From: Cetorhinus maximus
Taxonomy: Eukaryota
NCBI RefSeq assembly: GCF_964194155.1
Contig: NC_135883.1
Coordinates: forward strand, 136,648,001-136,712,000
DNA length: 64,000 bases
Direction: 5' to 3'
Under the pieces are notes generated by a model. That model worked only from the letters and a program-made list of their open reading frames with translations, did no database searches and was not told the DNA's origin. This document shows, piece by piece, positions 2,973 through 49,880 of this stretch. The stretch's first letter is position 1; every line of letters begins with the position of its first letter. The position numbers and the translations under genes were made by a program.

Positions 2973-3340
2973 GAACATAAGAAATAAGAGCAGGTGTGGT
3001 CCATATGCCCCTTCAGCCTGCTCCACTACTTAAAATCATAGCTAATCTTCAACTTCAACTGCACTTTCCTGCCAAATCCCCATATCCCTTGATTCCCTTA
3101 GAATCTAAAAAAATTGTCTATCTCAGCCTTGAGTGTACTCAATGATGGAGCACTGACAACCCTCTAGGGTAGATAATTACTAAGATTCATAAAAGAATCA
3201 TTGAAGAAATTTCTCCTCATCTCTATCTGAAATTGTTGACCCCATATCCTTAATCTCCTAGTTCTCGACTCTCCAACAAGGGAAAACAACCTATCCACAT
3301 CGACATGTCAAGCCTACATCTTATATGTTTCAATGAAATG
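2973..3340 (-). mobile_element. CR1 LINE 3' fragment
   Basis: Family 3' tail (GAACATAAGAAAT on + strand) and antisense ORF2 C-terminal sequence. Confidence 0.8.
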
Positions 3341-6055: not shown

Positions 6056-7646
6056 TCCTTGGAACATCTCCAAGTGCTTCACAGCTATTGGCCCTGACAA
6101 TATTTCAGCAACAGTACTGAAGATTTGTGCTCCAGAATTTGCCGTGCCCCTAGCTAAGTTGTTTCAGCACAGGTACAACACTGGCATCTGGCATCTACCC
6201 GGCTATGTGGAAAATGGCCCAGGTGTGTACTGTGAGCAAAAAGCAGGACAAATCCAACCCGGCCAATTACGGTCCCATCAGTCTACTCTCGATCATCAGT
6301 AAAGTAATGGATGGTGTCATCAACAGTGCTGTCACTTGACACGTGCTTAGCAATAACCTGCTCACAGACGCCCAGTTTGGGTTCCACCAGGGCCACTCAG
6401 AGCCTGACCTCATTACAGCCTTGGCCCTTGGCTCAAACATGGACAAAAGAGTTGAACTCCCGAGGTGAGGTGAGGGTGACTGCCCTTGACATCAAGGCCA
6501 CCCATTTGACTGAGTGTGGCATCAATGAATCCTAGCAAAACTGGAGTCAATGGGAATCAGGAGGAAAACTCTCCTCTGGCTGGAGCCATATCTAGCACAA
6601 AGGAAGATGGTTGTGGTTGTTGGAGGTCAGTCATCTCAGCTCCAGGATACCACTGCAGGAGTTCCTCAGGATAGTGTCCTTGGCCCAACCATCTTCAGCT
6701 GCTTCATCAATGACCTTCCTTCCATCATTAGGTCAGAAGTGGAGACGTTCGCTGATGATTGCACAATGTTCAGCACCATTCGCAATGCCTCAGACACTGA
6801 AGCAGTCCATGTCCAAATGCAGCAAGATCTGGACAATATCCAGGCTTGGGCTGACAAATGGCAAGTAACAATCGCGCCACACAAGTGTCAGGCAATGACC
6901 TTCTCAAACAAGAGAGAATCTAACTATCGCCTTTTGATATTCAATGGATTGCCACCACTGAGTCCCCCACTATCAATATCTTGGGGGCTACCATTGACCA
7001 GAAACTGAACTGGGCTAGCCAAATAAATACTGTGGCTACAAGGGCAGGTGAGAGGCTAGGAATCCTGCAGCAAGTAACTCACTTCCTGACTCCCCAAAGC
7101 CTGTCCACCATCTATAATGCACAAGTCAGGAGTGTGATGGAATATTCCCCACTTGCCTGGATGAGTGCAGCTCCAACAACACTCAAGAAGCTTGACACTG
7201 TCCAGGACAAAGCAGCCCCCTTGATTGGCACCACATCCACAAACATCCACTCCCTCTACCACCGATGTACAGTAGCAACAATGTGTACCATCTACAAGAT
7301 GCACTGTAGGAATTCACCTAGGCTCCTTAAACAGCACCTTTCAAACCCAAGACCACCGCCATCTAGAAGGACAAGGGCAGCAGATAGATGAGAGCACCAC
7401 CGTCTGGAAGTTCCCCTCCAAGCCACTCACTATCCTGACTTGAAAATATATCAACGTTTCTTCACTGTTGCTGAGCTAAATTCCTGGAACTCCCTTCCTA
7501 ACAGCACTGTGGGTGTACCTACACCATATGGACTGTAGCAGTTCAAGAAGGCAGCTCATCACCACCTTCTCAAGGGCAACTAGGGATGGGCAATAAATGC
7601 TGGCCCAGCCAGCGAAGCCCACATCCCGCAAATGAATAAAAAAAAG
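6056..7646 (+). mobile_element. CR1/L2-group LINE, 5'-truncated, RT domain with frameshifts
   Basis: WKMAQVCTVSKKQDKSNPANY.PISLLS, QFGF, GVPQDSVLGPTIFSCFINDL and FADD motifs; 3' tail ...CCCACATCCCGCAAATGAATAAAAAAAA. Confidence 0.93.
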
Positions 7647-8149: not shown

Positions 8150-9014
8150 AGCATTTGGGAATGAGCTAGGCTGCAGGGCTAAGGCTTGCTTGGGGAAGGG
8201 GGAGAAGTGCCCTTAGGCAAGGGAAGAGGCTGCAGGGTGAGGGCTGTACTTGGGAAGGAGATTTTCCCAGGGTGTGTGTGTGTGTGGGGGCACATGTTGA
8301 CCTGTGCAAGTGGCCTCAGGATGGTGATGGCTGAGGAGGCAGTCTCCAGAGGAGATGAGGCCCGATGGATATGTGAGGGTGTGTTTGAGAGACTGAGTGG
8401 TGATATCCCTTGAGCTGGCAGTGAGTAAGATGCCAGTGAATGTGTGATGGCTTTGTGAGTGTGTGAGTTTAGAGTGATGAGATGGTTGCCTTACCCTGGC
8501 GGCACGGATGAGATTATTCATCCGTTTTCTGCACTGGATGACCGACCACTTGCATGCAGCATTGTCACTGACCACCTCTGCCACCGCCCCCCAAGCTGGA
8601 CTGGTGACACTGATGGGCCTCCTGAGACCAGAGCGGGGGTGGAGGACATCGAGGGGGGGCCCAATGGTGTCCAAAAGGAATTGCAGGGATTTGTCACTGA
8701 ATCTGGGGGCTGCACTCTTCTTGGTTTTTGAGGCCATGTCTTCGCCGGTGCAGTCCTGGGCTGCGAGCATTGAGAAATGTGCACACGGCTGCAGTTTAAA
8801 AATGGAGCCCAGAGTGAGGAAGCAGCGAAAAAACGCCGTGGCGGGCAAAATGGAGGCTGCCCGCCAGCAAGACGGTGTGTTTCCTGTGGCTGCATAATTA
8901 ATGAGGCAGGAATGGGATGATAGGGCATGAAAACCAGCCATTACAGCCAGCAGGTAAAGCGACTTTTCTCCCGTCCGCTGCCGCACTTAATGCAAATCCG
9001 GGATGATTCCGTCC
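8150..9014 (-). mobile_element. Harbinger end fragment containing Myb/SANT-like exon 1
   Basis: TIR-like end at 9014 (reverse complement GGACGGAATCATCCCG); exon 1 and intron sequence homologous to 32097-32470; left boundary approximate. Confidence 0.7.
8495..8737 (-). pseudogene. Myb/SANT-like (MSANTD-type) DNA-binding domain exon 1 of Harbinger, 81 codons
   Basis: MASKTKKSAAPRFSDKSLQFLL...AWGAVAEVVS...SVIQCRKRMNNLIRAAR followed by GTAAG donor. Confidence 0.8.
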
Positions 9015-9906: not shown

Positions 9907-10720
9907 GGGCAGAATCTTCCGTTCTGGAGACTACGTCCTGTGGCAGGCGGGAATGTCGCTGGGATTCCCGCTGGGCGGTGGGAGGGATGAACACGTGCGG
10001 TCTTCCACTATTCTGCTCATCAATTGCGCATCCACGAGGAGCACAGCGTATCTCATGGTGGGATGGGCAGGAAGTTGCTCGCCTTGCCGTTGCCTAATGG
10101 GATCGAAGGTCCTGGTACCATATTTAAAGGGAACCCGGACAGCCATTCACTCAATGCAGGACAGGACCTCCACATTTCTCCTCCAGAGCCCTTACCGTCG
10201 CAGCACATACTGGAGAAGCTGGCAGATGTGAGCAACCACATCTGGGGACATACGAGGGCGCTTCCGGCATTGCTTTTCATTCATTTCTAGATAAGAACAC
10301 TGCCTGCGATACACCCATAGTCGGGCCAATGGTCGCTGTTGCAATGGACCCTGTTCACCAGCATCTTGACCTTCTTGAGGCCCCGCTGCACCTTCCTCCC
10401 AGGCCCTTACTCCTTCTGGCTCTGTGACAACCTGAGATAGGCCATCCTTCCCCTCATCTGGATGAGAGCCATTACAAAGTTAGGGTCACCTGCAGTCTGC
10501 ATCATCGATGCCTCAGTGGACCTGTGAACAGATTGAAATGATAAATTTAGTGAGCATGTCCGGTACAGGTTTCCCTCCATCCAAAAGTCAGCAGGCCAGT
10601 GCTAAGCCTTTGGCCTGGCCTCCAACTAAACATGGCATCCCCGCCCTACCCTTCCAGGATATAGGTGTTCCTCCTGTTCATACATGACTGCTCATGCAGA
10701 CATTGCTCTTTGCACCTTAC
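9907..10720. mobile_element. Internally deleted Harbinger derivative (Myb-side terminus fused to antisense transposase 5' exon)
   Basis: TIR GGGCAGAATCTTCCGTTCTGG; minus strand ~10210-10505 encodes ...VYRRQCSYLEMNEKQCRKRPRMSPDVVAHICQLLQ (HARBI1-like N-terminus); right end unresolved. Confidence 0.75.
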
Positions 10721-12544: not shown

Positions 12545-13186
12545 AGTTTTTTTAAATTCATTCACGGGATGTGGGCTTTTCTGGCTGGTCCAGCATTTAT
12601 TTCCCATCCCTAATTGCCCTTGAGAAGGTGGTGGTGAGTTGCCTTCTTGAACCGCTGCAGTCCCTGGGGTGTAGGTACACCCAGAGTGCTGTTAGAAAGG
12701 GAGTTCCAGGATTTTGACCCAGCGGCAGTGAAGGAATGGCAATATATTTTCAAGTCAGAATGGTGAGTGACTTGGAGGGGAACTTCCAGGTGGTGGTGTT
12801 CCTATCTATCTGCTGCCCTTGTCCTTTTAAATGGTAGTCGTCGTGGGTTTGGACGGTGCTGTCGAAGAAGCCTTGGTGAATTCCTGCAGTGCATCTTGTA
12901 GATGGTACACACTGCTGCTACTGTGCATCCGTGGTGGAGGGAGTGAATGTTTGTGGATGTGGTGCCAATCAAGTGGGCTGTTTTGCCCTGAAGAGTGTCC
13001 AGCTTCTTGAGTGTTGTAGGAGCTGCACTCATCCAGGCAAGTAGGGAGTATTCCATCATATTCCTGACTTGTGCCTTGTAGATGGTGGACAGGCTTTGGG
13101 GAGTCAGGAGGTGAATTACTCGTCGTAGGATTCCTAGCCTCTGACGTGCTCTCATAGTCATAGTATTTATATGGCCAGTCCAGTTC
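12545..13186 (-). mobile_element. CR1/L2-group LINE 3' fragment
   Basis: ORF 12802-13161 MEYSLLAWMSAAPTTLKKLD...; same tail as 6056-7646. Confidence 0.92.
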
Positions 13187-21471: not shown

Positions 21472-24400
21472 TTAATACTTCTTAATTTTTCTTACTCTAC
21501 CGCTATGTCTAGGTGCATCCCTGACATCCACAGCAGAGGTGGAGGCAGCCTGCTGACTGCTATACCCTGTTGACTGAGATGACTTTGGCAGATGTCCTCG
21601 ATGACCGGCCCCTGGCCAGCTAAGGGTCCCTTCCTCTGGTACGGATTCACATTCCATGGGCTGACCAGATGGAGGTGAAGGGGCCACTGGCAGAGGGGAA
21701 ATGGAGCAGCAGGGCACCCTTGGAGTGTCTGGGAATGATGCCCACGGGGTGCATGGCTGGCGGTCCTCCACTCTGCAGGTGCCCGTTGGCACCTCCCTGA
21801 TTCCTTGAGGAGAACAGTAACCAGAGGGAGGTCGAGGTGTCCACCCCTCCCCCCTCCCCTCCCCCCTCCCCCCTCCCCCTTCCACACCAAGCCATTGTTG
21901 TACTGCACCCAGGGCAAGAGCGATGGAATGCAAGCCCGAGCGGATATCCAGCAGCCACTGTGTGTTCTGCTGGACCTGGGTCTCCAAGGTGGCCACCACC
22001 CTTTCCATAAGACCATAAGACGTAGGAGCAGAAGTAGGCCATTGGGCCCATCGAGTCTGCTCCGCCATTCAATGAAATAATGGCTGATCTGATAATCCTC
22101 AACTCCATTTTCCTGCCTTTTCCCCATAACCCTTGATTCCCTTACCAATTAAAAATCTATCTCAGCCTTGAATATACTTTCACTTCCCTCATCTAAGTCA
22201 TTAATATATATTGTAAATAATTGAGGCCCCAGCACTGATCCCTGTGGCACTCCACTAGTTATAGGTTGCCATCCTGAAAATGCCCCCCATATCCCAACTC
22301 TCTGTCTTCTATTAGTTGGCCAATCCTCTATTCATGCTAATATAATACCCCCAACACCATGGGCTCTTACCTTATTTTGTAACCTTATGTGCAATACCTT
22401 ATCAAACCCCTTTTGGAAATCCAAGTATATTACATCTACTGATTCCCTTAATCTATCCTGCTTGTTATCTCCTCAAAGAATTCTAATAAATTTGTCAGGC
22501 ATGGTTTCCCCTTCATGAAGCCATGCTAACTCTGCTTGCTTAGATTATGTATTTCTAAATGTTCTGCTATTACATCCTTTATAATAGACTCCAACATTTT
22601 CCCAATGACAGATGTTAAGTTAACTATTTTATAGTTACCTGTTTTTTGTCTCCCTCCCTTTTTGAATAAGGGTGTTACACTGGCCATTCTCTAATCCTCT
22701 GGGACTTTTCCAGAATCTAAGGATTCTTGGAAGATTACGACCAGTACATCCACTATCTCTTTAACTACTTCCTTTAATATCCTAGGATGCAACCCATTAG
22801 GTCCAGGGGAGTTATTGGCCTTTAGCCCCATTAGTTTCCCTGGTACTTTTTCCCTAGTGATAGTTATTGTATTTATTCCTTTTGCCCCTTGATTATTTAG
22901 TATTTTTGGAATGCTATTAGTGTCTTCTACTGGGAATACTAAAGCAAAGCATTTATTCAACTCCTCTGCCATTTCCTGGTTCCCCATTATTATTTCCCCA
23001 GCCTCATTCTCCGAGGGCCCTATGTTCACTTTGGCCTCTCTCTTCCATTTTATATATTTAAAGAAGCTCTTACTGTCCATTTTTATATTACTTGCTAGTT
23101 TATCCTCAAAATTTATTTTCTCCCTCTTTATTGTCATCTTTTAGTTGGCTTTTAAAACTTTCCCAATCCTCTGGCTTACCACTAATCTTTGCCACAATGT
23201 ATGTTTTTTCTTTTAATTTGATACTGTTCTTAGCTTCCTTGGTTAACCATGGTTGGTTTATCCCCTTCCTTGAATCCTTCTTCCTCGCTGAGATACATCT
23301 TTGTTGTGAGTCATGAACTATTTTCTTAAACTTCTGCCATTGTTCATCAACCGCCTTTTCTGCTAAACTCCTTTTCCAGTCCACCCTAGCCAACTCTGCC
23401 CTCATTCCATTGTAATTGCCCTTATTTCAGTTTAACATGGTTGTTTCCGACCCAAGTTTCTCATTCTCAAACTGAATGCTAAATTCTATCATATTACCGT
23501 CACTGTTTCCTAGGGGATCCTTTACTCTGAGATCATTTATTAAACCTGCCAGCCAAGCACTCGCCTGCCAAAGCAGAATGTGGACGGACTCCTCCAGCCT
23601 TTGGTCCAGTCTGTGGATGACCTCTGATAGCTCTGCCTGATGTTCCCTTGCCTGGCTCTGCATCGTCATCAGGTCCCTGAGGGAGATGCAGAGCCTCCTC
23701 TGAGGATATGGAGGCTTCCACTTCGGAGGTGGGCTTGTGACTGGGGCTGCAGCATGTCCTGGTTGATGTCCTCCCCCATTTCTTGCTGGTACATGGAATA
23801 GCGGCAAGAGAGATTTAACGATTGGCTAAGCAGGCTTGTAAGTTAAAGATCAATCACAGTGAGAGGGTGCAAATGAGAACTCCAGACTGGATGCACCCTC
23901 ACTGCATTCCTTGGGGTGCCCTTCCACACAGGCACAGTCATGCTTCTCCCCGCCTATCTCTGTGGCTTGTTCCTTGAAGGTGGTCAGCAGGCGGATGTTG
24001 GCTGTACCTCCTCCGGCCGTGGCCCACTCACACTTGTTATAGGTGTTCTTGTCCTGCAGAAAGACAGAATGATTGATTGTGATCCCAATGGGTGAATGAG
24101 CAGTTCAGAGCATGCATGCCTAGTATCACAGCTGAGCCCTCTCCAGTAAGTGATTAAGAAGCTGTTTGTCCTGCAACTAATATGAAATTGACAGCTTAAG
24201 GCGGCTGGCACACATTCAGTGCTGATGTCCCATCTGCTGGTAGTGTGTGACATCCCTGTGCACTCTAATCCTTAGCCTGCCTGATGAGAGTATCAGTTTG
24301 CAGCGAGGAGATGATGTACTTACCCTGGCAGAGCACAGCAGATCATTCACCCTTTTTCTGCACTGCAGCCTGGTACTTTTTTGGAACCCATGGCAAACTC

Positions 24401-24950: not shown

Positions 24951-25560
24951 TTTTTTAAATTCATTCCTGGGATGTGAGCGTTGTTGACTTAGGCCAGCAC
25001 TTATTGCCCATTCCTAATTGCCCCTGAGAACGTGATGGTCAGCCGCCTTATTGAATCATTGCAGCCCATGTGGTGTGGGTACACCCACAGTGCTATTAGG
25101 GAGGGAGTTCCAGGATTTTGACCCAGTGATAGTGAAGGAACGGTGATATATTCCCAAGTCAAGATGGTGAGTGACCTAGAGGGGAACTTGCAGGTGGTGG
25201 TGTTTCCAAGCATCTGCTGCCCTTGTCCTTCTAGGTGGTAGAGGTCAAGGGTTTGGAAGATGCTGTTGAAGGAGCCTTGTGGAGTTGCTACAGCGCATCT
25301 TGTAGCTGGTACACACTGCTGCCAATGTGAATCGGTGGTGGAAGGAGTGAATGTTTAAGGTGGTGGATGGGGTGCCAAATCAAGTGGGCTGCTTTGTCCT
25401 GGATGGCGTCCATCTTCTTGAGTGTTGTTGGAGCTGCACTCATCCAGGCAAGTGGAGAGTATTCCATCACACTCCTGAATTGTGCTTTGTAGATGGTGGA
25501 CAGGCTTTGGGGAGTCAGGGGGTGAATTACTCACTGCAGAATTCTCAGCTTCTGACCTGG
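24951..25560 (-). mobile_element. CR1/L2-group LINE 3' fragment
   Basis: MEYSPLAWMSAAPTTLKKMDAIQDKAA and the family tail. Confidence 0.9.
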
Positions 25561-27004: not shown

Positions 27005-27785
27005 ATGGCGGGCAGGAAAGGTGGCATGATTCCCACTGGGCAGCGGGGTAGGTGAACATGCGCAATCTTCCGCTTCTCAGCTCATTAATTATGCATCCGT
27101 GAGGAGCTCAGGAAGTTGCCCACCCTGCTGTTGCCTCATGGGGTCAAAGGCCCTGGCACTATATTTAAAGGGTACCTGGACAGCCATTCACTGAGACTTC
27201 TCAAGCCAGGAGATCTGCGTTACGCCTCCAGAGTCCTTTCAGCTGCAGTTCATACTGGAGAAGCTGGCAGATGTGAATAACCACATCCCGGGACATACAA
27301 GGCCGCCTCCGGCATTGTCTTTGGCTCATCTCTAGATAAGAGAACCACCGGCGATACATCCATGGCAGGGCCAATGCTCAACATTGCAGAGGTCCATGTT
27401 CGCCAGCTTCTTAAATTTATAGAGGCCCCGCTGCCTCTTGCTGTTCAGGCCCTTGCTCCTCCTGGCCCTGTGCCAACTGACAATGGGCCCTCCTTCTCCA
27501 CATCTGGATGAGAGCCATTACCAAGGCAGGGTTGCCTGCAGCCTGCATCATCGGCACCTCAGTGGATGTGTGAACGAATTAAAGTGATAAATTTAATGAG
27601 CAAGTCTTTTACAGGTTTCCCTCCATCTCAAAGCCAGCAGGCCAGTGCTAAGCCATTTTCCTGGCCTCTACCTAGACATGGCATCACCACCCCACCCCTT
27701 CCAGGTACAGGACATCTTGGACGACCAGAGATGGGCGCTCCTCCTGTTCATACATGAATGCGTATGGAGACATTGCTTCATTGCT
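27005..27785. mobile_element. Second copy of the internally deleted Harbinger derivative
   Basis: Collinear with 9940-10720, including the junction between the Myb-side end and the antisense transposase exon. Confidence 0.75.
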
Positions 27786-31270: not shown

Positions 31271-32096
31271 ACAAAGATTGAATTGTTATTTATGAAATGG
31301 ATGCAGTGTTCCAATGGTTTCCTTTTCTCTCCCTCTTCAGTCCTGAGGGCATTAATGGTGGTAATGGTACCATTCCATGACTTCCTTCAAATGGCCTATT
31401 CTCCATGTGTGAATCCTGATGGTGGGGTAATTTTGACCTTAGGTGATAGCGAAAAGGGGGTGACATCGAATCACTGCCCATCTCCTGAAAATTACCCCAG
31501 CAGGCATCAAAGCCAGCCAGATCCAGCCCACACAATATCTACTTTTCAGGTGGCCATCACTGGATAACAGTACTGAATAGCATCACTGGATAACATCACT
31601 GGAGCGCTGATAACCAAAATGTTGATGTTGGCCAACTGTAGTACAATCGCTGCTGCTACAGATGACATCAATTGGTTCAGAATGAATTAAAAATCAAACT
31701 GTAACCCCTTGTTCCCTATGGCTCAGTTACCCATTGACTTTAGCAAGACAACTGTGGGGAGAAGAATCAGTGGATGGGGTAATTGTAGGGCAACAACATT
31801 GTGTGCTCCCATCTCAGAGACCCAGGGTGGAATTTTCTGTTCTGGAGACTACCAGTTGCGTGTGGCAAAGTCAGCATGGTACCTGTTGGGTGGCGGGGCG
31901 AGTCCTTGAGCCAGATTGTCAACCTTCAGGCCATTATTTATGCATCAATGAGCAGCTCATCGAATCCCGTGGTGGGGCAGGCTGGGATTCGTACGCATTG
32001 CCGTTATATCATAGGGTTGAAGATTCAGCCACTGTATTTAAACAGCAGCCACACACACATTCCCTCTCTGCAGCCCAGGACTTGCTGTGGCGAGTG

Positions 32097-35000
32097 ATGG
32101 CCCCGAGAAGAAACAAGCCCTCTGCTACCAAGTGCAGCAACAGCTCCCTGGAGAGACTCCTCCAGGCAGTCCGGGACTGGCAGGAGGTCCTCCAATCAAG
32201 AGATGGCAGCAGGAGATCCAGCAACCTCACCACGCTGGCTTGGGAGAATGTCATCGTGAAGGTGAGCGCGTGTGGGCCACAGAAGAGGACCACCCTGCAG
32301 GGCAGGAAGAGGATGAATGATCTCATGGACACCGCCAGGGTAAGTCAACTTCTCCTCACTCCCAACTCACACTCTCATAAGGCCATCAGGCATTTGCAGG
32401 GTTACTGCCCACAGAGGTCCCAAACACTACCAGCACAAGGGACATCACCACTGATTGTCTCACAGACACTTTAACATCATCATCTCCTGTAACATCCTGT
32501 AATATGGGGAGGTGGTGGCGTGGCAGTATTGACACTGGACTGGTAGTCCAGAGACCCAGCGTAATGCTCTGTACAGAGCTGGAAAAAAAATTCTAATGAT
32601 TGTCGTAAAAACCCATCTGGTTCATAAATGCCCCCTAGGGAAGGAAATATGCCGTCTTCACTTGGTCTGGCCTACATGTGACTCCAGATCCGCAGTAATG
32701 TGGTTGACTCTTAAATGCTCTCTGAAATGGCTTAGCAAGACACTCAGTTGTAACAAACAACTAGAAAGTCAATTAAATGGAATGAAAAGGGACGGACCAC
32801 CCGGCATTGACCTAGGCACCACATATGACAACGGCAAACCCAGGCCTGTCAACCCTACAAAGCCCTCCTTCCTAAAATCTGGGGGCTTGTGCCAAAATTG
32901 GAAGAGTTGTTTCACAGACTAGTCAAGCGAGAGCCTGACATAGTCCTCCTCACGGAATCATACCTTAGAGATCATGCCCGAGACGCTACCATCACCAAGG
33001 GAGGGATTTGCCCTGGGAGTCCTCAACATCAACTCCAGACCCCATGACGTCTCATGGTATCAGGTTAAACATGGGCAAGGAAACCTCCTGCTGATTACTA
33101 CGTATCGCCCTCCCTCAGCTGATGAATCAGAGCTCTTCCATGTTGAACATCACTTGGAGGAAGCACTTAAGGTGGCAAAGTTGCAGAATGTACCCTGGGT
33201 GGGGGACTTTAAGGTCCTTCACCAAGAGAGGCTCGGTAGCACCACTACTGACCAATCTGGCCAAGTCCTAAAGGACATAACTGCTAGACCAGGTCTGCGG
33301 CAGGTGGTGAGGGAACCAACAACAGGGAAAAACATACTGACCTCATCCTCACCAACCTGCCTGCCACAGATGCATCTGCCCGTGACAGTATCGGTAGGAG
33401 TGGCCACTGCACAGTTCTTGTGGAGGCGAAGTCCCGCCTTCACTTTGAGGATACCCTCCATCGTGTTGTGTGGCACTACCACCATGTTAAATTGGATAGA
33501 TTTCAAACAGATCTACCAACTCAAGAATGGGCATCCATGAGGTGCTGTGGGCCATCAGCAGCAGAATTGTACTCAATAACAATCTGTAACTTCATGGCCC
33601 GGCATATCCCCCACTCTACCAGTACCACCAAGCCAGGGGATCAACCCTGGTTCAGTGAAGAGTGTAGGAGGGCATGCCAGGAGCAGCACCAGACATACCT
33701 AAAAATAAGGTGTCAACCTGGTGAAGCTACAATACAGGACTACTTGCCTGTCAAACAGCATAAGCAGCATGTGATAGACAGAGCTAAGCGATCCCACAAC
33801 CAACAGATCAGATCTAAGCTCTGCAGTCCTGCCTCATCCAGTTGTTAATGGTGGTGGACAATTAAACAGCTCACTGGAGGAGGAGGTCCCACAAATATCC
33901 CCATCCTCAATGATGGGGGAACCCAGCACATCAGTGCAAAAAATAAGGCTGAAGCATTCGCAACAATCTTCAGCCAGAAGCGCTGAATGGATGATCCATC
34001 TCGGAATACTCTGGAGGTCCCCAGTATCACAGATGCCAGTCTTCAGCCAACTTGATTCACTCCACATGATACCAAGAAACGACTGAGCGCCTTGGATACT
34101 GCAAAGACTATGGGCCCTGACAATATACAGGCAATAGCACTGAAGACTTGTGCTCCAGAACTTGGCACACCCCTAGCCAAGCTGTTCCAGTACAGCTACA
34201 ACACTGGCATCTACCCGGCTATGTGGAAAATTGCCCAGGTATGTCCTGTACATAAAAAGCAGGACAAATCCAACCCGGCCAATTACTGTCCCATCAGTCT
34301 ACTCTCGATCGTCAGTAAAGTGATGGAAGGGATCATCAATAGTACTATTCAAGCAACACTTGCTTAGCAATAACCTGCTAACTGACACTCAGTTTGGGTT
34401 CTACCAGGGTCACTCAGCTCCTAACCTCTTTACAGCCCTGGTTCAAACATAGACAAAAGAGCTGAACACAAGAGGTGAGTTGTCATCAAGACAGCAATTG
34501 ACCGTGTGTGGCACCAAGAAGCCCTAGCACAACTGGAGTCAATGAGTATCGGGGGGTGGGTGGAATCCTCTCTGCTGGTTGGAGTCCTACGTAACACAAA
34601 GGAAGATGGTTGTGGCTGTTGGAAGTCAATCAGCTCAGTTCCAGGACATCACTGCAGGAGTTCCTCAGGGTTGTGTCCTAGGCTCATCTATCTTCAGCAG
34701 CATCATCAATGACCTTCCTTTCATCATAAGGTCAGAAGTGGGGATGTTCGCTGATGATTGCATAATGTTCAGCACCATTCACAACTCCTCAGACACTGAA
34801 GCAGTCCATGTTCAAAAGCAGCAAGACCTGAACAATATCCAGGCTTGGGTTGAAAGGTGGCCAATAACATTTGCACCATACAAGTGCCAGGCAATGACTA
34901 TCTCCAACAAGAGAGAATCTAACAATCGCCCCACGACATTCAATGGCGTTGCCATCACTGAATCCCCCACTAGCAACATCCTGGGGGTTACCATTAACCA

Positions 35001-36460
35001 GAAACTAAACTGGACTAGCCATATAAATGCTGTGGCTACAAGAGCAGGTGAGAGGCTAGGAATCCTGAGGTGAGTAACTCACCTCCTGACTCTCCAAAGC
35101 CTGTCCACCACCTACAAGGCACAAGTCAGGAGTGTGATGGAATGCCCCCCACTTGCCTGGATGAATGCAGCTCCCACAACACTCAAGAAGGTTGACACCA
35201 TCCAGGACAAAGCAACCTGCTTGACTGGCACATCCACAAACACTCAATCCCCCACCGCCCCCCTCCCCGCCACTGACGCACAGTAGCAGCAGTGTGTACC
35301 ATCTACAAGATACACTGCAGGAATTCATCAAGGCTCCTTTCGGCAGCAGCTTCCAAACCCACGGCCAATATCATCTAGAAGGACAAGGGCAGCAGATAGA
35401 TGGGAACAGCACCATCTGGAAGTTCCCCTCCAAGCCACTCACCATCCTGACTTGGGAATATATCACCGTTTCTTCACGATCACTGGGTCAAAATCCTGGA
35501 ACTCCCTCCCTAACAGCACCATGGGTGTACCTACACTACGTGGACTGCAAGAAGGCAGCTCACCGCCACCTTCTCAAGGGCAACTAGGGATGGACAATAA
35601 ATGTTGGCCCAGCCAGTGACACCCACATCCCCTAAATGAATAATTAAAAAAATACTGCACAAGTCGCATCTTCCGCCTTTACTGGGGAAGACTCAGCACA
35701 ACAGCAGGCATGCATGCTTATGCTCTGCTCTTTCATTGTGCTGCTCACAGTTTATCCACCCGTCTTTATGCAGGACAAGATCACCGACAACAAAAGTGAG
35801 CAATCCCAGACCACTGGTGGGATGTGGGAGTTGAGGCCACTCACGCCTTTCGAGGAGCAGGCGGCAGAGCTGTTTGGCTAGGACAGCAACTGTTCCTGCA
35901 CCAAAAATGAGATTGCTGCCTCCCAACAAGCCAGTGAGGGTCCATGCAGTAGTCATCAGCGGACACTGTGAATGCTCTTCAATGTAGGCGACTCTGTAGC
36001 CAATCACTAATTATCTCTTCTCTCAATTACAGCTACCAGCACGAAAAGGAACAGGGACACCACCAGCCAGTCCATCAGCCCCAGTCCCCAAAGCACTGAG
36101 GAAGCATCCAATAAAGACCCATCACTGCATTCACCTGCACCTCCACCAGCACAGAGATACAAACCTCAGGGGGGACCTAGGTCCCAGACTTGGGGATGCT
36201 AATGGTGAGCACAGAATAGACACGTGTCCACATCAGGCAGAGGCAGTAACAGCCAAGGTCTCTGACACTCGGAGGACTGCTGGAGACCAGGCCCTTGCTG
36301 AGGCCGAGTCCAACGACAAGCCTCTGGAGTCAGCCCTGAGAGAAATGTTGGAGCTCCAAAGACAGACAGGGGAACAGCAGGCAGGGTTGTTAGATGCCGT
36401 TGGCAGATTAGAATGAAGAGGGGAGGAGTCCATCTAGACTCTCTCTGATGTCAATACTCT
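32097..36460 (+). pseudogene. Harbinger Myb/SANT-like gene (exons 32097-32339, 35774-35933, 36033-~36460)
   Basis: 81-codon exon 1 MAPRRNKPSA...RKRMNDLMDTAR|gtaagt; exon 2 cag|DKITDNKSEQSQT.GG; TATA-like TATTTAAA at 32035; stops and frameshifts in exons 2-3. Confidence 0.8.
32506..35652 (+). mobile_element. Near-full-length CR1/L2-group LINE (APE + RT, no visible ORF1) with tRNA/SINE-like 5' end
   Basis: APE motifs IWGLVPKL..L...PDIVLLTESYL (~32878), YRPPS, VGDF, SG/DH; RT motifs GPDNI, NYCPISLLS, GVPQG.VLG, MFADD; intact 3' tail; several stops and frameshifts. Confidence 0.92.
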
Positions 36461-40640: not shown

Positions 40641-40666
40641 GGACAGTTTGCCCATTATAAAACATA

Positions 40667-42360
40667 TGTGGAGTCTGTACTCTGTGTGGAGTCTATAACC
40701 TGTATGGAGTCTGTAATCTGTCTGGAGTATGTAATCTGTCTGGAGTTTGTAACCTGTATGGAGTCTGTAACCTGTTTGGAGTCTGTAGCCTGTGTGGAGT
40801 CTGTAACCTGTTTGGAGTCAGTAGCCTGTGTGGAGTCTGTAACCTGTGTGGAGTATGTAGTCTGTATGGAGTCTGTAAACTGTGTGGAGTCTGTAACCTG
40901 TGTGGAGTCTGTAATTTGTCTGGGGTATGTAATCTGTCTGGAGTTTGTAACCTGTGTGGAATCTGTAAACTGTGTGAAGTCTGTAACCTGTGTGGAGTCT
41001 GTAACCTGTGTGGAGTCTGTAATCTGTGTGGAGTCTGTAACCTGTGTGGAGTCTGTAATCTGTGTGGAGTCTGTAACCTGTGTGGAGTATGTAAGCTGTC
41101 TGGAGTCTGTAACCTGTGTAGAGTCTGTAACCTGTGTGGAGTCTGTAATCTGTCTGGAGTCTGTAACCTGTGTGGAGTCTGTAACCTGTGTGGAGTCTGT
41201 AACCTGTGTGGAGTCTGTAATCTGTGTGGAGTCTGTAACCTGTGTGGAGTCTGTAACCTGTGTGGAGTCTGTAACCTGTTTGGAGTCTGTAACCTGTGTG
41301 GAGTCTGTAATCTGTGTGGAGTCTGTAACCTGTGTGGAGTCTGTAACCTGTGTGGAGTTTGTAATCTGTGTGGAGTCTGTAACCTGTGTGGAGTCTGTAA
41401 TCTGTCTGGAGTCTGTAAACTGTGTGGAGTCTGTAACCTGTTTGGAGTCTGTAGCCTGTGTGGAGTCTGTAACCTGTGTGGAGTCTGTAACCTGTTTGGA
41501 GTCTGTAGCCTGTGTGGAGTCTGTAACCTGTGTGGAGTCTGTAACCTGTGTGGAGTCTGTAATCTGTCTGGAGTCTGTAACCTGTGTGGAGTATGTAGTC
41601 TGTATGGAGTCTGTAAACTGTGTGGAGTCTGTAACCTGTGTGGAGTCTGTAACCTGTGTGGAGTCGGTAACCTGTGTGGAGTCTGTAACCTGTGTGGAGA
41701 CTGTAATCTGTCTGGAGTCTGTAACCTGTGTAGAGTCTGTAACCTGTGTGGAGTCTGTAATCTGTCTGGAGTCTGTAACCTGTGTGGAGTCTGTAACCTG
41801 TGTGGAGTCTGTAACCTGTGTGGAGTCTGTAATCTGTCTGGAGTCTGTAACCTGTGTGGAGTCTGTAACCTGTTTGGAGTCTGTAGCCTGTGTGGAGTCT
41901 GTAACCTGTGTGGAATCTGTAACCTGTTTGGAGTCTGTAGCCTGTGTGGAGTCTGTAACCTGTGTGGAGTCTGTAACCTGTGTGGAGTATGTAGTCTGTA
42001 TGGAGTCTGTAAACTGTGTGGAGTCTGTAACCTGTGTGGAGTCGGTAACCTGTGTGGAGTCGGTAAACTGTCTGGAGTCTGTAACCTGTGTAGAGTCTGT
42101 AACCTGTGTGGAGTCTGTAATCTGTCTGGAGTCTGTAACCTGTGTGGAGTCTGTAACCTGTGTGGAGTCTGTAATCTGTGTGGAGTCTGTAAACTGGCTG
42201 ATTTGTATACTCTATTTGGATTTTGTAAACTGTCTGGATTCTATAACTTGTTTGAGTTCAATAACTTCACTGGATTCTATACTCATCTGGAGTCTTTATT
42301 CCACCTGTCCTCTGTAACTTGTCTGGACCCTATAACCATCTGGAGTCTATAATCTGTTTG
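40667..42360. repeat. 18-bp minisatellite (TGTGTGGAGTCTGTAACC)n, about 85 good units plus a degenerate 3' flank
   Basis: Exact 18-nt periodicity from 40667 to ~42196, decaying to ~42360. Confidence 0.97.
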
Positions 42361-42840
42361 TATTCAATAGTCTGTCTGTATTCTATATCATGCCTGGATT
42401 TCTAGAACAGATGGCTGATCTGCTCTGCCCATTTATCATTCATGTGGGGAAGTTGAAAAATTTACCCTACAGGCTATTAAAGATTAACAAAATGTTTGTG
42501 TGGGTGAAGAGGTTTTCAAAACCTTTTACTTACGGATCTGTATGTAGCAATCTGTACCAACAATCCGAAGGTCTGGTTTCACGTGAAGAGTTGATTGATA
42601 TCCCACCTCACTATCCAGCTTTGCTGATTGTCAGTTTTGACCATTCGTAGCCTCTCAATGTCAGGTGTATAGGATTACTCTTTATTTCCTCCTTTCCCCT
42701 GCGTGGCTACCGGTGAAAACTTGTTCAAATCCATTGGTCATCCGCCTCTCCAGTGTTTAATCTTTTTTTTTCCAAAAATGTACTTTATTCCTAAAATTTA
42801 TATATAATACCATTACTTGGCCATTCAAAGTTAACATTAC

Positions 42841-42941: not shown

Positions 42942-43581
42942 GTATATAAAGCGTAAAACAAATCAGTTTCTTTTACAGTATGTGGCACCTTGAGTTGCCC
43001 CACTACATTTGCAGTTACAGTTAACATTTGCAATATTCATTTCATATCAAACATACTGGCATTCTGTATAAATAAACCTGGTCACTGAGTGTCGGTAGCT
43101 TATCCTTGTGGGGATGAGCAAACCAGAGGTAAACTCCACATTCTTTCCTCACAGTGACCTCGTTATTAATCCACCCCCACAATGGGCTGTGGGGAAAGGT
43201 GATGGGGGGGTTGGTGTGGGTGGTAAGGTGGCAGTGGTGGTCGTTCAAGTGTTAACTATGGGAAATGCGCCTGCCATGTTTTTCAATGTGACTGATACCA
43301 GGATGTCTGAGTGGAGAAGCTGGACACTTAATTAACATATTTAAATCTGGCTCACACAGTGCAATTGGGAACTGAACTGAAAACCTTCTGCTGCTGCTGC
43401 AAGGGTTTCCCAGGAATTGGATAACTCAGCAGTGAAAGGAGGTGCGGGTTGTGGACTTTATGAGCACTTTTAGCACTCCTTGCAGGCCAGGAGGAACAGG
43501 ACTGTGCCCCAGAGGCCCACAAGGAAGCCTCTCCCTCCACCAGACCTGATCACCAGCCTTCTTCTCCCAGGCCCGATCACC

Positions 43582-44356
43582 TGCAGCCTCCCTCCCCCAT
43601 GTCCTGCACCAGCCTACCTCCCCTTTGGTCTGCACCAGCCTCTCTCCCGCATGTCCTGCCCCATTCTCCCTCTCCCATGTCCTGCCCCATTCTCCCTCTC
43701 CCATGTCCTTCCCCAGCCTCCCTCCCCCATGTCCTGCACCAGCCTCCCTCCCCCATGTCCTGCACCAGCCTCCCTCCCCCATGTCCTGTACCAGCCTCCC
43801 TTCCCCATGGTCTGCACCAGCCTCTCTCCCTCATGTCCTGTACCAGCCTCCCTCTCCCATGTCCTGCACCAGCCTCCCTCCCCCATGTCCTGCTCCAGCC
43901 TCTCTTCCCCATGTCCTGCACCAGCCTCTCTCCCCCATGCCCTGCTCCAGCCTCCCTCCCCCATGCCCTGCTCCAGCCTCCCTCCCCCATTTCCTGCCCC
44001 AGCCTCTCTCCCCCATGTCCTGCTCCAGCCTCCCTCCCCCATGCCCTGCTCCAGCCTCCCTCCCCCATGCCCTGCTCCAGCCTCCCTCCCCCATTTCCTG
44101 CCCCAGCCTCTCTCCCCCATGTCCTGCTCCAGCCTCCCTCCCTCATGTCCTGCTCCAGCCTCTTTCCCCCATGTCCTGCTCCAGCCTCCCTCCCCCATGT
44201 CCTGCTCCAGCCTCCCTCCCCCATGGTCTGCTCCAGCCTCCCTCCCACATGTCCTGCTCCAGCCTCTTTCCCCCATGTCCTGCTCCAGCCTCCCTCCCCC
44301 ATGTCCTGCACCAGCCTCCCTCCCCCATGGTCTGCACCAGCCTCCCTCCCCCATGT
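43582..44356. repeat. 26-bp minisatellite (CATGTCCTGC[A/T]CCAGCCTCCCTCCCC)n, about 30 units
   Basis: 26-nt periodicity, e.g. CAT at 43728 and 43754. Confidence 0.96.
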
Positions 44357-46631: not shown

Positions 46632-48450
46632 AAGAACGTAAGAAATAGGAGCAGGAGTAAGCCATTTGGCCCCTTGAGCCTGTTCCGTCATTCAATAAGA
46701 TCATGGCTGATCTGATTATGGCCTTAACTCTACTTTCCTGCCTGCCCCCCCATAACCCTTGCCTCCCTTGTAGATCAAAAATACGTCGAATTCAACCTTG
46801 AATATATTCAATGACTCAACCTCCATTGCCCTCAGGGATACAGAATTCTGAAGATTAACAATCCTCAGAGTGATGAAACCGCTCCTCAACTCCACCTTAA
46901 ATTGGAGAATACTTATTTTGAAACTGTGCCCCCTAGTTCTAGATTCCCCCATGAGGGAAAACATCCTCCCAACATGTGCCCCATCAAAACCCCTCAGAAT
47001 CTTATATGTTTCGATAAGATCAACTGGCATTCTTCTAAACTCCAGAAGATGCTCCTCAAAAGACAAACTCTTCATCCCAGAAATCAACCCAGTGAATCTT
47101 CTCTGAACTGCCTCCAAAGCAAATGCGGAGACAGAAACTGGACAAGGTGTGGTCTCAGCAATACCATATACTGTTATACTCCATCCCCTTGCAATAATGG
47201 CCATTTGCCTTCCTAATTACTTGCAGAACCTGCATACTAATATTTTGTGATTCATACACCCAGATCCCTCTGTACTGCAGCATTCTTTAGTCTCTCTCCA
47301 TTTAAATAAATTTCTGCTTTTTGATTCTTTCCACCAAAGTGGGCAACTTCACATTTTCCCATATTATACTCCATCTGCCAATTTTTTGCCCACCCACTTA
47401 ACCGATCCATAACCCATTGCATCCTCATCGTGTCCTCCTCACAACTTGCTTTCTGACCTATCTTTGTATTGTTAGCAAATTTGGCTACAGTACACTCTGT
47501 TCCTTCATCCAAGTAATTAATGTAGATTGTAAATAGTTGAGGTCGCAGCACTGATCTCTGTGGCACTCCACTAGTTACAGTTTGCCGACTGGAAAAATGA
47601 CCCAATTATCCTGACTGGCTTTAATTTTGCCAGTTGGGCAGATGGCCCAACAGCAGCCGGAGATGCATGTTGCTGGCTTACACAGGAGGCTGGCAGGCCT
47701 TCTCTCCTAATTTTACAGGTGGCAGCCTGTGCTCTCCTATTATATGGATGGCAGGCCGCTGCTGAGGGTTGCTGCACAATCAGAGGGCTGGCAGCTCAGC
47801 AGCCTCAGCAACGCCACCAGGAGCAACTGGCTACAGCTGAGGCAGGCTGGGGCCCAGCAGCCTACAGCAGGCAGGCAAGAAAATCTTTTTAAAAAATTCC
47901 AGCACCAAGTGCTGGAGCAAGAAACTCCTCAGGCGATATCATTGGAGACACGGGGGGGCTGCTGTCCCTGCCTGCGGCCTCCTCTTTGCTTAAAAAATCC
48001 ATCCCTCTCCCTCCTGCCTGCCCTTCCCCCTCCTGCCCAGGGCTGCCACCAGGAGGCCGCCTTCATTTAGCTGGTGGGGTTGGAGGGGTTGATCTGTCGT
48101 CAGCCAAACGGTGACAGCCAGGATAAATGGCCTTTAATAGGGCCTTTACCTATTCAAATTGGCTGCCCACGACCTTGGGGTGGGCTGCCTGCCTGACTCT
48201 GGCCCCGCCATTGTTAAAATTTCCTGGCAATGGGACATGGTAGGGGAGCCGTTCCGCCAAGGCTCCCCGCGATTTTACCAGCCCCCTCGCCTCCACTGCC
48301 GCCTCCTGGGGGCCGATAAAATTCTACCCTCTGTTTCCTGTCAGTTAGCCCGTCCTCTATCCATGATAATATATCACCCCCAACACCATGGGCTCTTATA
48401 TTGTATAGTAACCTTTAATGTGGCACCTTTAAAATGTCTTTTAGAAATCC
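46632..48450 (-). mobile_element. CR1 LINE 3' part interrupted by a MITE at 47617-48329
   Basis: [24 protein letters not shown]...KFANNTK RT motif; CR1 sequence resumes at 48330. Confidence 0.88.
47617..48329. mobile_element. Harbinger-type MITE inserted in CR1
   Basis: TIR-like GGCTTTAATTTT / AAAATTCTACCC; splits the CR1 motif ...ATCCTGACT|TCTGTTTCCTG. Confidence 0.65.
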
Positions 48451-49599: not shown

Positions 49600-49880
49600 C
49601 CAATAAATATTTAAATTAGTTCAAATCCCATCAAGGCAATTTGCGAAAAATTTCATTATTCATAGATAGATAAAATAACAATAAAAATATGCAGGATTGT
49701 TGTAAAAACCCCACTGGTTCACCAATATCCTTCAGGAAAAGGAAGCTACTGCCCTCCACTGCCTCCGCGCACCTGCCCCCCCCACCCCCCACCCCCACAC
49801 CACCCCACTGCCCCCCACCACCCCACTCCCCTCCCTGAAGTTCCCAACCTGGTTTACATGTGATTCCACATGTTTGAAAT
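49600..49880 (+). mobile_element. tRNA-SINE fragment homologous to the 5' end of the 32.5-kb LINE
   Basis: B-box AGTTCAAATCCC (49618-49629); GATTGTTGTAAAAACCCCACTGGTTCACCAATATCCTTCAGGAAAAGGAA matches 32598-32650. Confidence 0.6.

Follow-up and report, generated by a model that had tools for sequence, protein, structure and literature searches.

R2 and the single-ORF L2 elements UnaL2 and ZfL2-2 carry one open reading frame (ORF), and in this they resemble the long interspersed element (LINE) considered here, which begins with a tRNA-like head and lies in a window of 64,000 nt from Cetorhinus maximus (contig NC_135883.1, positions 136,648,001 to 136,712,000 of the forward strand). R2 RNA is uncapped and its translation starts without a standard AUG. 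Unlike the tRNA-headed LINE, R2 depends on co-transcription by RNA polymerase I (Pol I), on release by a ribozyme and on a different endonuclease.

CR1-Zenon elements of Lepidoptera and bivalves share with the new family a single ORF with an APE endonuclease followed by a reverse transcriptase (RT), a short basic leader and a poly(A) end. Single-ORF CR1 elements have already been described (PMC6740152) and "CR1-Zenon like" LINEs have been reported in the whale shark (bioRxiv 10.1101/443036). In PMC6740152, the Zenon 5' untranslated region (UTR) is given as having neither tRNA homology nor a promoter for RNA polymerase III (Pol III), whereas the family described here has a tRNA-derived head with A and B boxes, no runs of four T (T4) and no in-frame AUG to start from. 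The Persaeus SIDE, an internal deletion of Zenon (PMC6740152), and the bipartite LINE derivatives (PMC5786205) likewise join the 5' part of a LINE to its 3' end. The published model adds a head to such derivatives afterwards, whereas the parent LINE studied here already carries one, and deletion alone therefore gives a tRNA-headed short interspersed element (SINE). The mammalian T+ SINEs known as B2, Dip and Ves also have a tRNA head, AATAAA, a T-run and an A-tail, with the terminator lost in many copies (PMC8466645). The chondrichthyan SINEs HE1/HER1, SacSINE1 and the CmiSINEs are tRNA-headed retroposons of cartilaginous fishes too, but their descriptions set them apart: they have only the tail in common with CR1 or L2 partners and contain V, Deu or CORE domains (PMC5499810, PMC3747384). 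It has been stated that "SINEs cannot encode a protein" (PMC5786205). In the literature searched, neither an autonomous LINE with a tRNA head nor the present family was found described; Repbase, Dfam and subscription journals lay outside this scope, so a database entry may exist.

The most far-reaching interpretation, with a probability of about 0.6, is that the family is an autonomous retrotransposon whose 3.3-kb mRNA would be made by Pol III from a tRNA-derived promoter, ended in a T-run, polyadenylated, and translated without a cap or a standard AUG. Such an element would occupy about 7% of a vertebrate genome, would have repeatedly spawned its own SINEs by deletion and would be an intermediate between SINEs and LINEs.

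Results

The succession of head, body, ORF and tail is real and, with near certainty, family-wide. An earlier note on this DNA had described an ORF1-less LINE that starts with an A-box-like stretch and lacks a B box. These observations were confirmed in the window copy: the A-box-like TGGCGTGGCAGTA is present at 32516-32528, and the IWGL codons of the first APE motif begin at 32877, some 370 nt into the element, whose 5' end is at 32506. The B box is absent because 50 nt, comprising the B box and the T arm, were lost at 32571/32572 relative to the family; a deletion of 21 nt at 32597 and another, of 68 nt, at 32997 are also present. APE (PF14529) and RT (PF00078) pieces were found, split by frameshifts and stops, while neither ARAGORN nor Rfam detected a tRNA in the window copy. 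The two flanks are parts of a single host repeat, which is unbroken in an empty-site homolog (L021) across the point that holds head, ORF and tail. Head and ORF therefore arrived together, and the window copy is one insertion of the entire unit, flanked by at most a 6-nt imperfect duplication (ATCCTG/ATACTG). The host repeat, with its Myb/SANT-like frame, spans 31686-32505 and 35653-36416 of the window and has related copies at 24027-24361 and 8371-8532; it is probably a DNA transposon, presumably of the Harbinger type.

Copies elsewhere in the genome were collected in three sets: 29 other copies chosen by the leader/APE region, 20 chosen by RT frame length out of 150 protein matches, and 29 loci picked by the head. 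The RT-selected set was added because the leader/APE query leans toward long copies. In addition, 400 kb of genome DNA at round-number positions served as an unbiased sample. Upstream of the APE region, as the note had proposed to look, 23 of the 29 APE-selected copies reach the same tRNA-like head, the other six ending at scattered points in unrelated DNA. The head was present on 5 of the 20 RT-selected copies, with 15 truncated or rearranged at scattered points, and 24 of the head-picked loci continue into the ORF (three are head plus tail, two have larger internal deletions). An older subfamily with a different head variant has that head joined to the ORF at 4 of 30 older-head loci, and further head-ORF links were seen when 11 of its copies were examined. 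No shared alternative 5' end was seen in the three copy sets or in the unbiased sample, nor were full-length copies with another 5' end and an ORF1, so the proposal that the head belongs to the LINE family holds. Target-site duplications around head and ORF, which the note had suggested looking for, are short or absent (no consistent duplication at the 13 of 21 full-length copies having both ends); the joint movement is seen instead from the host repeat continuous around one unit.

The family accounts for 6.9% of the bases in the unbiased sample, which held four head+ORF copies and five clear head+tail copies; the head was present in four of the five copies spanning the start of APE. Extrapolation from these four events gives some 40,000 headed LINEs (about 11,000-100,000) in the 3.99-Gb genome. 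A second LINE family suspected near L072 proved to be a chimeric junction of the same family. ORF pieces of the LINE also occur inside NCBI shark gene models (P0001, P0007) named aldo-keto reductase and galactosyltransferase, as probable annotation artefacts or exonisation.

A family majority sequence of 3295 nt was derived from 20 full-length copies and the window copy. Its head contains an A box TGGCGTAGTGG, a B box GGTTCGAATCC and the anticodon loop CTAGTAA. The cloverleaf that the note had wished to see tested was recovered by relaxed ARAGORN, which called it tRNA-Thr(agt) and gave it a long extra arm. The head also aligns, through the loop and T arm, with two genuine tRNA-Thr(AGT) genes of the genome. 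Both boxes are retained in both subfamilies. The extra arm is 96% paired across 14 copies, with two double-sided compensatory changes, and in the older subfamily it resembles a tandem copy of the anticodon arm. The full-length element thus has the defining trait of SINE2, a tRNA-derived head with A and B boxes, and departs from that class in being neither short nor non-coding, as it measures 3295 nt and has an ORF of some 975 codons. Some 75 exact pattern matches (L346-L357) have a head without the extra arm and with normal tRNA spacing; they represent either separate deletions or a minor subfamily.

The majority sequence has a single frame, about 975 codons long and with one CpG-decay stop, that contains recognisable APE and RT catalytic motifs, in that order, within one ORF. 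About 430 nt lie between the 5' end and APE. The longest other upstream frame, of 86 aa, was rejected as an ORF1 (its second ATG is lost in the older subfamily), and the ORF1 that precedes ORF2 in classical two-ORF CR1 elements is absent. The earlier note had held this absence to be unusual for a CR1/L2-type element; the absence is real but ordinary for the Zenon-like clade (PMC6740152), and, with single-ORF CR1 elements already described, it is not where the novelty lies. The RT is about 28-36% identical to the genome's classical CR1, and in a quick tree, the RT phylogeny that the note had suggested, an 87%-supported single-ORF group stands apart from classical CR1, with no row named Zenon. 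RT and C-terminus are 36-46% identical to this group of 940-1000 aa single-ORF proteins, whose named members are from amphioxus and a eukprot entry. The best relatives have a short basic leader directly before APE and often come from 3.1-4.1 kb contigs; the closest named protein matches are from the sharks Heptranchias (69%) and Rhincodon (77%). From its C-terminal motifs we tentatively place the family in a Zenon-like CR1 group. The young and older subfamilies differ at 86, 40 and 29 sites at codon positions 3, 1 and 2, and, at low depth, 77 of the differing codons are synonymous and 65 non-synonymous; this third-position bias indicates purifying selection on the ORF between the subfamilies.

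Two independent, indirect signs make it likely that the coding RNA is a Pol III product: a depletion of T-runs in the sense strand and T4 or longer runs (T4+) before the A-tail. Pol III terminates at four or more T (PMC8466645). The sense strand of the majority sequence has no T4 and seven runs of three (T3), where base shuffles give 4.3 and 21.8; runs of A, C and G occur at the expected level. When synonymous codons were shuffled, the four T3 observed compared with 12.8. A young classical CR1 family of the same genome (L131-L155; 97-98% between copies, ORF2 open for at least 782 codons in the majority sequence) was used as control and has eight T4 in 2 kb. It replaced a first control family, at 9963-10707 of the window, that is not a LINE. 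Individual copies have 0.27-0.48 T4/kb in the LINE family versus 3.75 in CR1, and the unbiased sample gave 0.5 versus 4.3. Among 80 metagenome LINE loci, all 55 frames of at least 450 aa, a few of which may not be the RT gene, hold at least five T4. The closest metagenome relative (L236), also the nearest full-length relative with upstream DNA, has 20 T4 versus 18.1 expected, its own ATG, no B box upstream and no tRNA head. Relaxed ARAGORN matches on the metagenome loci (26 in 80) look like chance and were disregarded.

The 3' ends follow the pattern AATAAA ... GAAT(T)n(A)n. T4+ precedes the A-tail at 40 of 196 ends versus a background of 2.2%. The run was counted at 12 of 79 ORF-bearing ends (13 by the script, of which one was a false match), those of young copies among them, at 19 of 70 SINE ends and at 11 of 46 short ends; the opposite order was seen at one of 195 ends. 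An origin of the runs in the target was rejected, the run being mostly absent from the empty-site homologs available for 9 of 43 ends, the best-matched cases included; the exceptions were one T-rich site, one false match and two ends with single weak homologs. The complete T+ SINE type of end (AATAAA, T-run, A-tail) occurs in about one end in five. By analogy with T+ SINEs, such ends would mark transcripts that terminated and were then polyadenylated, in this case RNA bearing an ORF. Head and ORF pieces occur in the contigs of four putative RNA runs, which fall under four organism codes; the contigs are deepest over the body that SINEs and LINE have in common, and the holders include six organism codes.

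That the SINEs were derived from the LINE by deletion is well supported. The commonest young SINE, at loci picked by that form, joins family nt 1-292 (97%) exactly to 3217-3295 (92%), and other junctions lie at 315/3216, 319/3188 and about 330/3150-3170, one of them seen also in RNA contigs. With at least four independent junctions, the LINE would be the parent, as the note had supposed in calling the head+tail SINE an internal deletion. The derivatives are 370-420 nt long, consist of head, body and LINE tail, and are non-coding and multicopy with a shared junction, all SINE2 traits. The note had further pointed to a SINE-like fragment at 49.6-49.9 kb of the window. Its homology to the LINE 5' body (local score 86 versus a maximum of 36 in 200 shuffles) and its B box AGTTCAAATCCC were upheld, but not its identity as a SINE: it matches the older subfamily better (108 of 137 aligned letters versus 99 of 133) and no tail was found beside it, and it is therefore a decayed head/body fragment and not a demonstrated SINE.

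Directly before the ORF, and in phase with it, stands ATG-GCC-TAG-CAA. Across 58 copies of this mini-frame the ATG is present in 51, and the third codon is TAG in 42, TAA in four, GAG in three and CAG in two. The older subfamily has the same ATG-GCC-TAG-CAA, its leader frame being kept while an out-of-frame ATG was lost. UAG-CAA is a leaky readthrough context, and a conserved TTG five codons downstream is a candidate near-cognate start. Readthrough of the TAG, a start at the TTG or entry of the kind used by internal ribosome entry sites would each fit an uncapped RNA.

The coordinates of the window features are collected in Table 1. Other repeats were noted in the window and the genome. Another element, about 2.3 kb long, multicopy and with a nuclease-like minus-strand frame (window 9963-10707 and 27028-27777; L091-L110) is not a LINE and, from its motifs, is presumably of the Harbinger type. 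Decayed classical CR1 RT fragments lie on the minus strand at 22158-23017 and 47249-47602, and self-comparison revealed long tandem repeat arrays at 40661-42408 and 43531-44356. C2H2 zinc-finger-like repeats lie on the minus strand of a multicopy segment (L187-L210, mostly in contig C24) that adjoins older-subfamily LINE fragments and is probably a duplicated zinc-finger gene cluster.

Table 1 Features of the LINE family and its surroundings in the window (positions in nt from the first letter of the window).
Feature	Position	Strand	Remarks
Decayed tRNA-headed single-ORF LINE, whole copy	32506..35652	+	91% identity over 3124 aligned nt to family majority sequence
tRNA-Thr(AGT)-like head	32506..32571	+	A box about 32516-32526, anticodon arm 32535-32551, first half of extra arm
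5' body, conserved, common to SINE derivatives	32572..32726	+	ends at the most frequent deletion point of young SINEs (32726, family nt 292)
ATG-GCN-TAG mini-frame, in phase with ORF, within predicted hairpin	32727..32735	+	family context TAG-CAA
Single ORF, broken in window copy (about 975 codons in family)	32736..35587	+	basic leader, APE endonuclease from about 32868, RT, C-terminal domain
Short 3' UTR	35588..35652	+	AATAAA 35596-35601, (TGAA)n, A-tail
Tail retained by SINEs	35575-35652	+	
Host repeat, left flank	32136..32505	+	Myb/SANT-like coding piece; PF13873 E=2.6e-4, just under cut-off; homologs 24196-24361, 8371-8532
Host repeat, right flank	35653..35900	+	continues left flank as in the empty-site homolog in L021
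5'-truncated copy of same LINE	6085..7645	+	82% to 34108-35651
5'-truncated copy of same LINE	12547..13185	-	window self-comparison
5'-truncated copy of same LINE	24951..25559	-	window self-comparison
Decayed B-box-plus-body fragment, older subfamily	49615..49755	+	B box AGTTCAAATCCC at 49618-49629

Discussion

The earlier note had proposed an autonomous LINE driven by a tRNA-derived promoter. The family-wide head and its A and B boxes support this, and the use of Pol III is supported indirectly by the T-run depletion and the T4+ 3' ends; Pol III transcription of the coding RNA combined with autonomy is reasonably probable. Head, body, ORF and tail travel as one unit. TFIIIC would read the A and B boxes, Pol III would start at the first G and could cross the element because no T4 terminator lies inside, and transcription would end in the 3' T-run, the RNA then being polyadenylated via AAUAAA as in mammalian T+ SINEs. 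The uncapped RNA may be translated from a non-standard start, through readthrough of ATG-GCC-TAG-CAA or from a near-cognate codon such as TTG, which is the weakest step of the scheme. As is established for this class of element, APE would nick the target and RT would copy the RNA by target-primed reverse transcription. Repeated deletions then yield head+tail elements that retain promoter and tail.

Several results weigh against this proposal. The absence of T4 is not significant against dinucleotide shuffles (0 versus 1.7, p=0.175) or own-codon shuffles (p=0.084), and the T3 depletion is marginal against dinucleotide shuffles (p=0.044). About four-fifths of the 3' ends have no T4 run, and the transcript data are contigs, which show neither start, strand nor polymerase. 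Covariation over the whole head is only modestly above that of shuffles, and Rfam scored a tRNA in one of 10 intact-head loci, below threshold, with no ribozyme match. The first in-frame Met of the ORF is residue 290, beyond APE, and with none earlier and a stop at codon 3 of the mini-frame, the ORF lacks a standard start of translation. A fully intact ORF was found neither among the 150 best RT matches (longest 620 aa) nor in the 20 full-length copies (longest 630 aa), and the older-subfamily sequence behind the selection estimate has a depth of 3-9, with ties resolved toward the young one.

Some of these points would suit other explanations. The RNA might be made by RNA polymerase II (Pol II), through read-through or an unrecognised internal promoter, with the head acting as a processing or structural element whose cutting by RNase P/Z would release the 5' end, much as the hepatitis delta virus (HDV)-like ribozyme acts for R2. 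The maintained RNA structure of the head, including a compensated extra arm that a DNA promoter does not need, agrees with this, as do the AATAAA and the missing AUG start, the latter paralleled in R2. LINEs are, moreover, generally transcribed by Pol II (PMC5786205). We consider Pol II transcription unlikely, as it leaves unexplained both a T-run depletion over 3.3 kb that is absent in CR1 and the relatives and the oligo-T before the A-tail, and both subfamilies have kept the A and B boxes. If the family were instead a giant SINE, a long Pol III element whose ORF is dead and which a rarer LINE, having a normal start or a different 5' end, mobilises in trans, this would account for the prevalent TAG at the third codon, the lack of a usable ATG and the failure to see an intact ORF, and the GAG or CAG minority would open the frame. 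This is harder to reconcile with some 975 codons open, but for one CpG-decay stop, around catalytic motifs, with a third-position bias between two subfamilies that both bear the TAG, and with copy sets and an unbiased sample in which no other 5' end was found; we regard it as improbable.

The direction of descent between LINE and SINE may also be questioned. If a pre-existing tRNA SINE had given head and body to the LINE, the present SINEs would be the donors, and it is true that the commonest young-SINE junction sits exactly before the ATG and that L236 has no tRNA head. The latter means that the head was acquired at some point, and its original capture from a tRNA or a SINE is likely. The present-day SINEs, in contrast, look derived: at least four different junctions exist, some within the coding leader, SINE heads match the LINE subfamily that they accompany (97%), and the LINE has a predicted hairpin across the 292 junction. 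There is accordingly only a slim chance that today's SINEs were the donors. From the window copy, which is ambiguous alone with its head lacking a B box, one could imagine that a 5'-truncated LINE had inserted, once only or at a specific site, next to or into a SINE. This candidate was rejected and is next to impossible: dozens of unlinked copies, differing in their flanks, have the identical head-ORF junction, the tail is not followed by the rest of a SINE, and the host repeat is continuous around the entire unit.

If the autonomous, Pol III-transcribed element is accepted, several consequences would follow. Annotation of cartilaginous-fish genomes is affected, as automatic tools would split the element into a SINE and a LINE. 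The family would provide a natural long Pol III mRNA that needs uncapped translation. An RT-coding element that fills a genome under a SINE head would break the division between Pol II LINEs and non-coding SINEs, and deletion of a LINE that already bears its head would be a direct route to the birth of SINEs.

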